A stretch of DNA of 35,451 bases from a virus (taxonomy: Duplodnaviria > Heunggongvirae > Uroviricota > Caudoviricetes): the IMG/VR virus record IMGVR_UViG_2695420367_000003, positions 1-35,451 of that record; one strand, written 5' to 3'. How positions within the stretch are numbered: the stretch's first letter is position 1; each line of letters starts with the position of its first letter. The notes under the pieces were generated by a model. The model had not been told where the DNA came from. It did not search any database and worked only from the letters and a program-made list of their open reading frames with translations. A program made the position numbers and the translations under genes. Positions 1,811 through 4,800 of this stretch are shown here, one piece after another.

Positions 1811-4800
1811 ATGACCACTGTGAATAAAAAGTTAAAAAAAACTGCATCTGGCGCGATTACATGGTCGGTAATTGTTACCCAGATATTATCTCCAGTTTCT
1901 CTTTCTTTGATCCCAGCAAACAGTTTTGCATCATCTGGTAATAAAGATGTTACGCAAACTTATGCCAGCGATGAGCATGCAAATAAAGTGGCCTCATTTG
2001 CAGCAAGTGCAGGTCAGAGCCTGGCGAATAATAATGCAAGTAGTTTTGCTGTAAATACTTTATCAACTCAGGCGACAAAAGAGGTCGTCGACTGGTTGCA
2101 ACAATATGGCAATGCGCGCATCAAGCTTAATGTCGATGATTCTTTTTCCTTGAAGGATTCATCATTCGACTTTTTATATCCATGGCTGGATACTCAGGAT
2201 TATGTGCTATTCAGTCAGACATCACTACATCGTACTGATGACCGAAATCAGACCAATATTGGTTTGGGGATTCGTCATTTCACTCCTGATAACGCAATGT
2301 TGGGTGCGAATGTTTTCTATGATTACGATTTAAGTCGCAGTCACTCTCGTGCAGGTTTTGGGGTTGAGTACTGGAGAGATTATTTCAGGCTTGGTGTAAA
2401 TACCTATTTTGGTTTGTCTGACTGGAAGAACAGTCGGGATATTGATGATTATCTGGAAAGACCCGCAAATGGCTGGGATTTTTCTGCTGAAGGATGGCTA
2501 CCTGCTTATCCGCAATTAGGGGCATCCATTCAGTTTGAAAAATATTATGGTAAAAATGTCGGGTTATTTGGAAGCGATAATCTGCAGGAAAACCCTTACG
2601 CAGTTACTGGGGGAATTTCTTATACACCAGTTCCTCTGATTAAGTTTTCTGCACAGCATAAGCAAGGACAGAGCAACGTTCACGATACAACCTTTGGTGT
2701 TGAGTTTAATTATCGCCCGGGCGTTTCCCTTGCTGAACAGCTTAGCAGTGACAATGTTGCTGTTATGCGAGAAGTCCAGAACCGGCGTTATGATTTTGTT
2801 GAACGAAATAACAACATTGTTCTGGAGTACAAGAAGAAGCATGCACTGAAAATCAGTTTGCCAGAGTCTGTTCAGGGGGAGGGGGAATCAATCATCCCTG
2901 TAACACTGACAATCAACAATGCTAGTGGTGGTATCAAGTCTGTACAGTGGAATGATAGTGCATTCACTGCGGCTGGCGGCAAGATCAGTGGAAATGGCAC
3001 ATCATGGCAGATCACTTTACCGGCTTATAAAAGCGAAGGTGTAAATTCGTGGAATGTTGGAGCCACAGTACAGGATAACAGAGGCAACGTTTCCAACTAT
3101 GCCGTGATGAATATTAGCGTTACTGATAGTGGTGTCTCGACGGCTGATTCGTCTTTTACACTGGATGGAGATTCGTCGCCGACGATCTCTGCTGATAGCC
3201 AATCCACTTATCCAATAGTATTAAGCCTGAAAGATAGTAACGGTAAGGCATTAACCGGACTGGCTGATGACATTGAAATGTCAGTGGAATTTACAGCAGA
3301 TAGCAATAGTGCTCGACAGCGTGAAACGGTAACTGCTCCGTCATTAGGCGCGGTAGAGGAAATCTCTGCTGGGGTATATCGCTCTGTTCTGACTGCTGGT
3401 TCGCAGGCTGGTACGGTACGTGTAACTGCAAAAGTTCAGGGAAAAACCTTTACTCTGAATATTAAGCAGGCAGCCATTACTGATAGTGATGTATCGACAG
3501 CTGATTCGTCTTTTACACTGGATGGAGATTCGTCGCCGACGATCTCTGTTGATAGCCAATCCACTTATCCGATAGTATTAAGCCTGAAAGATAGTAACGG
3601 TAAGGCATTAACCGGACTGGCTGATGACATTGAAATGTCAGTGGAATTTACAGCAGATAGCAATAGTGCTCGACAGCGTGAAACGGTAACTGCTCCGTCA
3701 TTAGGCGCGGTAGAGGAAATCTCTGCTGGGGTATATCACTCTGTTCTGACTGCTGGTTCGCAGGCTGGTACGGTACGTGTAACTGCAAAAGTTCAGGGAA
3801 AAACATTTACTCTCAGTATTAAGCAAACAGCAGCAACAGAACCTGATTCTGAGGTCAGTGCTGTTTTAACCGCTGCACCAGCAGAACAGGTAGTTGGTTA
3901 CAATATCAATCTACAACTGGCAGTGAAGGATTCACAAGGAAATGCAATCACTGGTGATAACACTCTGAGCTTTTATGCTCTTAACCAGGCAGAAGGAGTC
4001 GAGTTTGGGACTGTAACGGAAAAAGACGGTGTCTATAGCGCGACAGTAACTTCAAAACGAGCTGGTAAGATTACTATCGGTGTTAAATCTGATAGTCATG
4101 ATTTCTCAGGTGTTAAGAAAGAAATCACCTTTATTGAGGACCGGCAGCAGGTTACATTCTCTCAGTTTGAAGCCAGCCAAAATAATGCATTGGCTGATGG
4201 AAAACAGAGAAATATGGTAACTGTAAGCCTTGCGGACCGTTTCGGCAATGTTGTTCCTGGTTATGCTGTCACATTGTCTTTACCAGCAGGGATAACTCAA
4301 GTTGGTGGTGAACATGCTGTTTCAACTGACGAAAATGGTAATGCTATTTTTGCGTTAATAAGCTCCACTCCGGGGTCTTACGTGATTACAGCTCATGCTG
4401 GTTCTCAGATGTCTACTGAGTTAACAGTGACCTTTGCATCAAATATGACCGGAGCTTCACTGTCACTGACGCCTGAAAGCAGTAGTTTAATTTCCAATAT
4501 TCCTGCTAATGGTAAGGATGCAGCGGTATTAGATGTGCAGCTGACAAATACGAATGCGTCGGTCAATGGGCAAAAGATTCAGCTCATCACCTCATCTGAA
4601 GGATTATCTATACCAACAAATATCGTGACTGATTCAACAGGGCATGTTTCTGTTCCGCTTACAACGGTGAAAGCTGGTGAGTACACGGTGACTGCACGGG
4701 TGACTGACGGTTCCCATAGCGTGGAATCTGGCAGCGTTAAGTTAACTTTTGTGCCCGATGTTGCTTCTGCAGAACTTACTATGAGTGTATCAAAACAAGA

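Follow-up and report, generated by a model that had tools for sequence, protein, structure and literature searches.

Copy number and age of a 357-bp repeat encoding an immunoglobulin-like stalk domain in a prophage-borne inverse autotransporter gene of Escherichia coli

Introduction

Two consecutive, nearly identical 119-codon units within an adhesin gene raise the question of whether they are a recent duplication, one state of an older array that changes in length, or a product of assembly. The gene lies in a virus sequence of the class Caudoviricetes (IMG/VR record IMGVR_UViG_2695420367_000003, positions 1 to 35,451); this whole stretch of 35,451 nucleotides is referred to as the window. A preliminary description, made from the sequence without database searches, had read the units as a recent duplication of one immunoglobulin (Ig)-like domain. 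Our analysis leads to a different account of their age. Very probably, the units are the two-copy state of a copy-number-variable array of one 119-amino-acid (aa) Ig-like stalk domain, in an unnamed inverse autotransporter that is cargo of a lambda-like prophage. The repeat is real but of an established kind, and the work adds documentation rather than a new idea. Specifically, we add the prophage location, the range of 1-4 copies across 560 genomes, sets of alleles with identical flanks, and the junction and edge pattern of an old, homogenised array.

The repeat array and the domain it encodes

Tandem Repeats Finder returned one array, at 3120-3825, with a period of 357, 2.0 copies, 97% matches, no indels and a score of 1349. 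A seed-and-extend search revealed this array to be the sole family of direct repeats of at least 40 nt within 1500-6200. Identity at an offset of 357 nt was 0.9-1.0 in all 30-nt windows of 3131-3460 and 0.1-0.43 in the rest of the gene. The preliminary description had given a near-perfect 357-bp tandem duplication inside the open reading frame (ORF) at 1811-5719, and the period, the two copies, the 119-codon unit and the high identity on self-comparison of the gene were all borne out. Its coordinates, 3124-3837, located the array correctly but placed its register about 5 nt too far to the right: in codon phase, the array occupies 3119-3832. The two units adjoin head-to-tail and are both in frame, each being 357 bp, or 3 × 119. 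They are identical at 344 of 357 nt (96.4%) and at 113 of 119 residues. Seven of the differences are synonymous and six non-synonymous, corresponding to 0.023 non-synonymous (dN) and 0.081 synonymous (dS) substitutions per site.

That one unit equals one Ig-like domain, also put forward in the preliminary description, agreed with the Pfam results. Invasin_D3 matched unit residues 8-110, and the single units scored 41.6 bits (unit 1) and 38.9 bits (unit 2) against a Pfam cut-off of 33. The start of unit 1 is the exact end of a domain resembling intimin D00, and an FdeC domain (4e9l) can be aligned with the unit apart from an insertion of ~13 aa. The repeat boundaries thus fall in inter-domain linkers. 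Together, the Invasin_D3 match and the FdeC alignment imply that the repeats would adopt an Ig-like rod fold.

The remainder of the protein is that of an inverse autotransporter (type Ve, intimin/invasin family). In translation, its N-terminus is basic and hydrophobic and ends in ...ANSFA. PF11924 (IAT_beta) matched aa 57-334 over profile positions 3-279 of 279, at 338.4 bits against a cut-off of 22.3, and lies N-terminal to the passenger. Over the whole protein, the Pfam scan yielded 185 bits for Big_1 and 182 bits for Invasin_D3. In phmmer, the intimin D00-D0 structure 6tqd aligned with query residues 9-123 (E = 1.7e-9). The stalk domains that follow the repeats, at 3833-5320, contained no DNA-level repeats in the search for direct repeats of at least 40 nt. 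The ~130-aa tip matched no family and no solved structure, and no C-type lectin domain was detected in it; the Pfam matches of the adhesin likewise include neither a LysM nor a lectin domain. A periplasmic LysM domain and a C-type lectin tip are both optional in inverse autotransporters, occurring in intimin, invasin, YeeJ, IatC and IatD. The layout of barrel, D00, repeats, five Ig domains and unmatched tip is consistent with a surface-anchored stalk. The gene carries only generic annotation, and NCBIfam models of named relatives all scored far under their cut-offs (bits/cut-off): IatC 393/2400, intimin 330/1400, SinH 317/999, Ilp 312/1125, YrIlm 305/750, Inv 287/710 and YchO 272/508.

Copy number among E. 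coli genomes

The unit was present in 560 of 5426 complete E. coli genomes (~10%), at 1-6 places per genome (median 3). Of 60 records taken at even spacing from the 561, ten had one copy, 13 had two, 36 had three and one had four. Homologous proteins of 1302, 1421 and 1540 aa correspond to two, three and four units, the unit starts being exactly 119 aa apart; protein length follows 1183 + 119(n-1) aa for n units. No protein longer than the four-unit ones ranked above them in the homologue search. The fetched loci, labelled L002 to L017 below, are sorted by copy number in Table 1, and all those with 1-4 units occupy the same prophage position.

The recent history of the array can be read from three sets of alleles (Table 1). 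Within each set, the gene outside the repeat had 0 differences in 3195 positions, yet the copy numbers differ. Thus, L015 is L002 minus the middle unit, and L003 is L002 with the middle unit doubled. Gains or losses of units have therefore occurred on several occasions and postdate every point substitution in these 3.2 kb. The preliminary description had proposed that the repeat is a substrate for length variation. Indeed, complete E. coli genomes hold 1, 2, 3 or 4 units, alleles with identical flanks among them, and repeat number differs across this same range when related strains are compared.

Beyond E. coli, a search of GTDB species representatives (185,579 genomes) gave a single match, a 357-bp contaminant contig in a Moraxella assembly, and nothing else outside E. 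coli at that sensitivity. A phase-variable on/off contingency locus was considered and rejected: the unit is 3 × 119 bp, and the 1-4-copy variants all keep one open frame. RefSeq splits the four-copy locus (L003 2692-7314; NZ_CP124455.1, strain AVS0193) into a partial pseudogene and an 'invasin domain 3-containing protein'; the 4623-bp frame is in fact uninterrupted (1540 aa). Some genomes had up to six unit matches, and five places were on plasmids; there may be two prophages in one genome, or a plasmid or phage-plasmid may carry a copy. The profile of phrog_7803, which matches the N-terminal 560 aa, has 1642 positions and so exceeds the longest allele (1540 aa). Five units would give 1659 aa, and prophage collections may hold a five-copy variant.

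Age of the array

To describe the units, we divided each into a head H (the first ~24 nt), a core M (~303 nt) and a tail T (the last ~30 nt). The two-copy array of the window then reads H-M-T' / H'-M-T, where H' is unlike H and T' is unlike T. Three-copy alleles read H-M-T' / H'-M-T' / H'-M-T, the four-copy allele adds one internal H'-M-T', and one-copy alleles are H-M-T, the head of the first unit joined to the tail of the last. The T'-H' junction accordingly occurs n-1 times in an n-copy allele and is common to all allele classes. It was the same in 9/9 multi-copy alleles sampled besides the window's own, and none of the sampled alleles contained a fresh T-H junction. The shared T'-H' junction and the H-M-T form of the one-copy alleles are as predicted by unequal homologous exchange within M.

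The differences between the units of the window are concentrated at the edges. Ten of the 13 fall in the 54 edge nt and three in the 303 core nt (Fisher p = 6e-7), with a dS of ~0.69 for the edges versus 0.013 for the core. Across three allele classes, the edges group by position: first-first or last-last comparisons gave 0-4 differences and first-last comparisons 9-10. The cores group by allele: cores of the same class differ at 0-3 sites in the window-like and L008-like classes, and cores of different classes at 12-23. The cores of one allele reach 100% identity (L009 and L016), and those of the window 99%. Core dS was 0-0.013 within an allele versus 0.1-0.2 between alleles. Synonymous sites are thus homogenised as well, so protein-level selection is not the cause of unit identity. 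Finally, allele classes that share the diverged junction differ by up to 8% in the 3' parts of the gene.

Judged by these patterns, the array is old and of single origin, its cores have been homogenised by concerted evolution, and recent change is confined to the copy number. The age follows from the position of the differences at the edges and from the occurrence of the same diverged junction in classes whose 3' parts differ by 8%.

Proposed mechanism and alternative explanations

The ~300-bp cores shared by both units, being 99% identical, would supply the homology for exchange. Whole units would be added or removed by homologous exchange between misaligned cores, whether sister chromosomes are involved or the template slips at a replication fork. 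The outcome would be alleles with one, two, three or four domains and a surface stalk that is longer or shorter by one Ig domain per step. By comparison with the invasin rod, each unit would contribute roughly one Ig domain, or ~4 nm, to the stalk. Since the unit is 119 aa (357 bp), the array is always in frame. Repeated rounds of exchange would keep the cores identical; the junction between units and the array's outer edges would escape homogenisation and diverge. As for the enzymology, sister exchange mediated by RecA, slippage independent of RecA and assistance by the prophage's Red genes are all conceivable. Chi sites were looked for as a recombination stimulus, and there were none in the adhesin gene.

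Several points weigh against this account. The copy number of the window is that of the assembled sequence, and the compared genomes were taken as 'complete' irrespective of sequencing technology. The edge dS comes from 54 nt and few sites. Homogenisation is not uniform: 11-12 sites separate the cores of the most divergent class (L007, L010). Because recombination between alleles has made the gene a mosaic, import could explain some of the differences in copy number. A single-sequence AlphaFold2 model of aa 334-830 had a mean predicted local distance difference test (pLDDT) score of 50, with both units below 50, too poor for rod geometry. Surface display is predicted from the sequence, and stalk length may affect adhesion or immune exposure.

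At first sight, the 96.4% overall identity and the exact in-frame tandem do look like a young duplication of one Ig-domain unit in this lineage, the 13 differences having accrued since. This was the reading of the preliminary description, and it is not supported: the differences are spread unevenly between edges and cores, the edge dS is high, the diverged junction is shared by allele classes with 8%-different 3' parts, and allele-specific core variants are common to both units, as expected of concerted evolution. We consider a single recent duplication quite improbable. Selection for the same protein domain, such as a binding site that is repeated, could also keep the units identical in place of recombinational homogenisation, and the unit is indeed under purifying selection between alleles (dN/dS ~0.1-0.2). 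Protein-level selection, however, cannot produce the contrast in core dS within and between alleles, which makes this explanation barely credible. Diversifying selection on the repeat was rejected, as dN/dS was 0.1-0.3 between units and between alleles.

A mis-assembled repeat longer than the reads might likewise have produced two copies, or differing copy numbers. The preliminary description had warned of assembly collapse, and this risk proved genuine. The array is at least 714 bp and exceeds short-read length, and draft assemblies yield partial proteins that stop at aa 450-464, where unit 1 has run for 14-28 residues. In addition, a 357-bp orphan contig from a 'Moraxella osloensis' assembly (L014; CAXORL010000232.1, 1-357) is one junction-spanning unit, identical to L002 4680-5036 at 356 of 357 positions; E. 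coli contamination, in which the repeat has collapsed to unit length, is the most likely source. There are published precedents such as YrIlm (PMC6868369). Partial proteins on 356-bp and 390-bp contigs were also considered as collapsed units and turned out to be N-terminal fragments. Against an artefact, the units differ at 13 sites and so are not one sequence written twice; the two-copy allele occurs at 99.9-100% identity in five complete genomes from different hosts and countries; the exact two-copy protein is found on 70 contigs; and the copy-number variants obey the H-M-T'/H'-M-T grammar exactly, with unit-specific single-nucleotide polymorphisms (SNPs). An artefact in the window itself is unlikely, and mis-assembly as the general explanation very improbable. 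Whole-allele exchange between related prophages, through homologous import or phage turnover, might account for most copy-number differences in place of changes within the array. The locus sits on a mobile element, and allele divergence is blocky: the L008-like repeat region has 14 differences per 200 bp relative to the window, its flanks have 0-6, and most of the 3' half is identical between the two, which suggests mosaic recombination between prophage alleles. Import would usually carry linked differences, however, and the three sets combine identical 3195-bp flanks and identical unit SNPs with copy numbers that differ by simple deletions or doublings of internal units. We therefore regard import as the main source of the variation as unlikely.

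An extension of the copy-number-variable array to its biology is rather doubtful, if somewhat less so than wholesale import. A temperate lambda-like phage would give its lysogens a 'periscope' adhesin whose length is reset faster than by point mutation, maybe matched to the thickness of O-antigen or capsule or to immune pressure, and maybe with help from Red (exo/bet/gam, ~5 kb upstream). If so, the adhesin would be a phage-borne, length-tunable lysogenic-conversion factor missing from the published list of E. coli inverse autotransporters.

Comparison with known systems

The principle that identical domain repeats give a variable stalk length is already established. Periscope Proteins (Whelan et al. 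2021, PNAS, PMC8201768; review PMC9704523) have stalks of highly identical tandem domains whose number differs from one related strain to another. Inverse autotransporters with Invasin_D3 repeats are explicitly part of the class, and homologous recombination is the proposed mechanism (PMC8201768, PMC9704523). Among its defining features are tandem repeats longer than 50 residues and highly identical in DNA, here 119 aa with 96.4% over the unit and 99% over the core, and a repeat number that varies among close strains, here 1-4 units including the three identical-flank sets. Periscope Proteins are also surface-anchored, and their repeats, each a globular domain with its two termini on opposite sides, form a rod-like stalk that separates the anchor from a distal functional part. 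Cluster 53 in Dataset S1 of PMC8201768 ('YeeJ', A0A192CME6) is an E. coli protein with IAT_beta, Big_1 and Invasin_D3, a 119-aa repeat in 2-3 copies and a DNA identity of 0.98. Judged by these numbers, which agree with ours, cluster 53 is probably this adhesin under a misleading name. The label fits poorly, as the true YeeJ has 2359 aa and another locus (PMC6714894). This large survey thus probably lists the protein already. Its entry covers only three proteins with 2-3 copies and mentions neither a location in a prophage nor copy numbers of 1-4 nor the pattern of junctions and edges. Literature searches for a name of the gene returned nothing specific besides this probable entry.

Among inverse autotransporters, the best-studied parallel is YrIlm of Yersinia ruckeri; it and YrInv have tandem Ig-like domains with identical DNA sequences (Wrobel et al. 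2018, as described in PMC6868369). YrIlm resembles the window adhesin in secretion type and in having ~300-bp units that are each a whole Ig-like domain and differ in number between strains, and its repeats are under-counted in short-read assemblies (PMC6868369). YrIlm is chromosomal, with >20 identical repeats, LysM and a C-type lectin tip, whereas the window adhesin has 1-4 units, neither domain detected, and a prophage location.

The named inverse autotransporters of E. coli are intimin, FdeC/EaeH, YeeJ, IatA (YchO), IatB (SinH), IatC and IatD (Goh et al. 2019, PMC6714894). The window adhesin shares their beta-barrel family and Big_1 stalk but is unlike all six inverse autotransporters of strain SMS-3-5 in size and locus, and it is absent from this 2019 catalogue. 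For IatC and IatD, there was no evidence of tandem-repeat number variation (PMC6714894); in the window adhesin gene, such variation is plain. Among Gram-positive bacteria, alpha C/Rib of group B Streptococcus and SasG/Aap of staphylococci have identical in-frame domain repeats that change in number by recombination, with effects on antigen exposure and adhesion (PMC9704523, PMC8201768). These proteins are sortase-anchored, with other folds and many more repeats, and their phenotypes were shown by experiment, whereas the window adhesin is known from sequence.

The adhesin gene nevertheless matters in practice, occurring in ~10% of complete E. coli genomes, O25b:H4-ST131 isolates included, with a length that is untrustworthy in short-read assemblies. 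Phage can carry the adhesin with this variable array from strain to strain. The array is also a small, clean case of concerted evolution in a coding minisatellite: it is single and old, its junction is fixed, its cores are homogenised, and units have repeatedly been gained or lost in recent times.

Prophage setting and neighbouring genes

The adhesin gene is 100% identical to the coding sequence (CDS) of WP_016232955.1 from E. coli Z1323HEC0475 (NZ_CP148326.1) and 99-100% identical to genes in many other E. coli genomes; by these matches, the host is E. coli. In NZ_CP148326.1, the identical locus (L017, 625265-672000) lies inside a lambda-like prophage. This prophage begins with an integrase beside tRNA-Thr/proA, followed by exo/bet/gam, the repressor region, O, P, and the adhesin with a convergent hydrolase gene. 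It continues with ybcN-ninE-rusA-Q, lysis, terminase, head and tail genes, J, Lom and the tail fibre. The adhesin gene is therefore located between replication gene P and the nin/Q region, in the early-right part. Deposited phage genomes had no nucleotide match, and the only protein matches, in a short phage fragment and a Salmonella record, were ~30% identical; the gene is thus absent from sequenced free phages. In PHROGs, the adhesin falls under phrog_7803 and phrog_16344, families of unknown function.

Table 1. Features of the window and copy-number classes of the adhesin gene in the compared loci
Feature	Position or size	Strand	Basis or remarks
O-like replication gene, cut by window start	39-863	+	phrog_277/phrog_109 for the O-like/P-like pair; RefSeq of identical locus
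P-like replication gene	860-1561	+	phrog_277/phrog_109 for the O-like/P-like pair; RefSeq of identical locus
AT-rich intergenic spacer, putative own promoter region of adhesin gene	1562-1810	+	Sequence
Inverse autotransporter (type Ve) adhesin gene, 1302 aa	1811-5719	+	ORF list; PF11924 IAT_beta + Big_1 + Invasin_D3
Signal peptide, predicted (~aa 1-40, ending ...ANSFA/SS)	1811-1930	+	Read off translation by eye
12-stranded beta-barrel translocator (aa 57-334)	1979-2812	+	PF11924, E = 4.9e-101
First passenger domain, intimin D00 equivalent (~aa 342-436)	2834-3118	+	phmmer alignment to 6tqd
Repeat unit 1 (aa 437-555)	3119-3475	+	Head H, core M, tail T'; Invasin_D3/Big_1 Ig-like domain, 119 aa
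Homogenised core, unit 1	3143-3445	+	300/303 identical to 3500-3802; homology tract open to unequal exchange
Inter-unit junction T'-H'	3446-3499	+	Unit 1 codons 110-119 + unit 2 codons 1-8; diverged linker segment
Repeat unit 2 (aa 556-674)	3476-3832	+	Head H', core M, tail T; second copy of unit 1 domain
Homogenised core, unit 2	3500-3802	+	300/303 identical to 3143-3445
~5 further Big_1/Invasin_D3 Ig-like stalk domains, ~100 aa each	3833-5320	+	Pfam on successive 100-aa pieces
C-terminal tip, ~130 aa	5321-5716	+	No family or solved-structure match
GC-rich hairpin, scores as intrinsic terminator on both strands	5731-5751	.	Between adhesin and convergent hydrolase genes
Alpha/beta hydrolase, BD-FAE-type esterase	5756-6799	-	PF20434 153.9 bits; phrog_3341 esterase
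One-unit alleles	CDS 3552 bp		L004, L005, L006, L012
Two-unit alleles	CDS 3909 bp		Window, L007-L010, L015, L016
Three-unit alleles	CDS 4266 bp		L002, L011
Four-unit allele	CDS 4623 bp		L003
Identical-flank set 1			L015, O25b:H4-ST131 isolate (2 units); L002, L011 (3); L003 (4)
Identical-flank set 2			L004 (1 unit); L016 (2)
Identical-flank set 3			L006 (1 unit); L008, L009 (2)

The adhesin gene may have its own promoter in the ~250-bp spacer upstream. Promoter-like hexamers occur there at 1725-1752 and 1762-1789, in a scan that was overall not above shuffled expectation. The hydrolase gene is co-cargo with the adhesin gene in most alleles and is missing in the divergent alleles L007 and L010. 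The adhesin-hydrolase block has a G+C content of ~0.44 versus ~0.50 in the flanking phage genes. Low G+C, the spacer and the terminator-like hairpin form a layout typical of phage cargo genes ('morons'). Lambdoid prophages also carry outer-membrane cargo such as Lom, Bor and the Eib trimeric autotransporters, and the prophage of NZ_CP148326.1 itself codes for an Ail/Lom family protein. Like these, the adhesin gene is surface protein cargo of a lambdoid prophage. Lom, Bor and Eib are small beta-barrel proteins, lipoproteins or type Vc trimers, whereas the adhesin is monomeric, of type Ve and variable in its Ig stalk, and is encoded between P and the nin region.

Other features of the locus were noted in passing. 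Within the O-like gene, at 285-440, there are five iterons of ~19-23 bp resembling TTTACCCGAATCAGGTAA, each with an inverted repeat TTACC...GGTAA. An A-rich stretch comes next, and the arrangement resembles a replication origin of the lambda type lying inside gene O. The NZ_CP148326.1 prophage is annotated with frameshifts in two genes, those for the integrase and the tape measure; the window has an open ORF of 853 aa (32687-35248) over the tape-measure region. Some strains may carry a defective prophage, or the frameshifts may be errors of sequencing. Insertion sequences were seen at two loci. In strain E03, IS1 truncates the adhesin gene inside unit 1 (L013 4185-4939), and the rest of the gene and the hydrolase gene are deleted. 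In an ST131 isolate, ISEc23 lies between the adhesin and hydrolase genes (L015 6755-9171).

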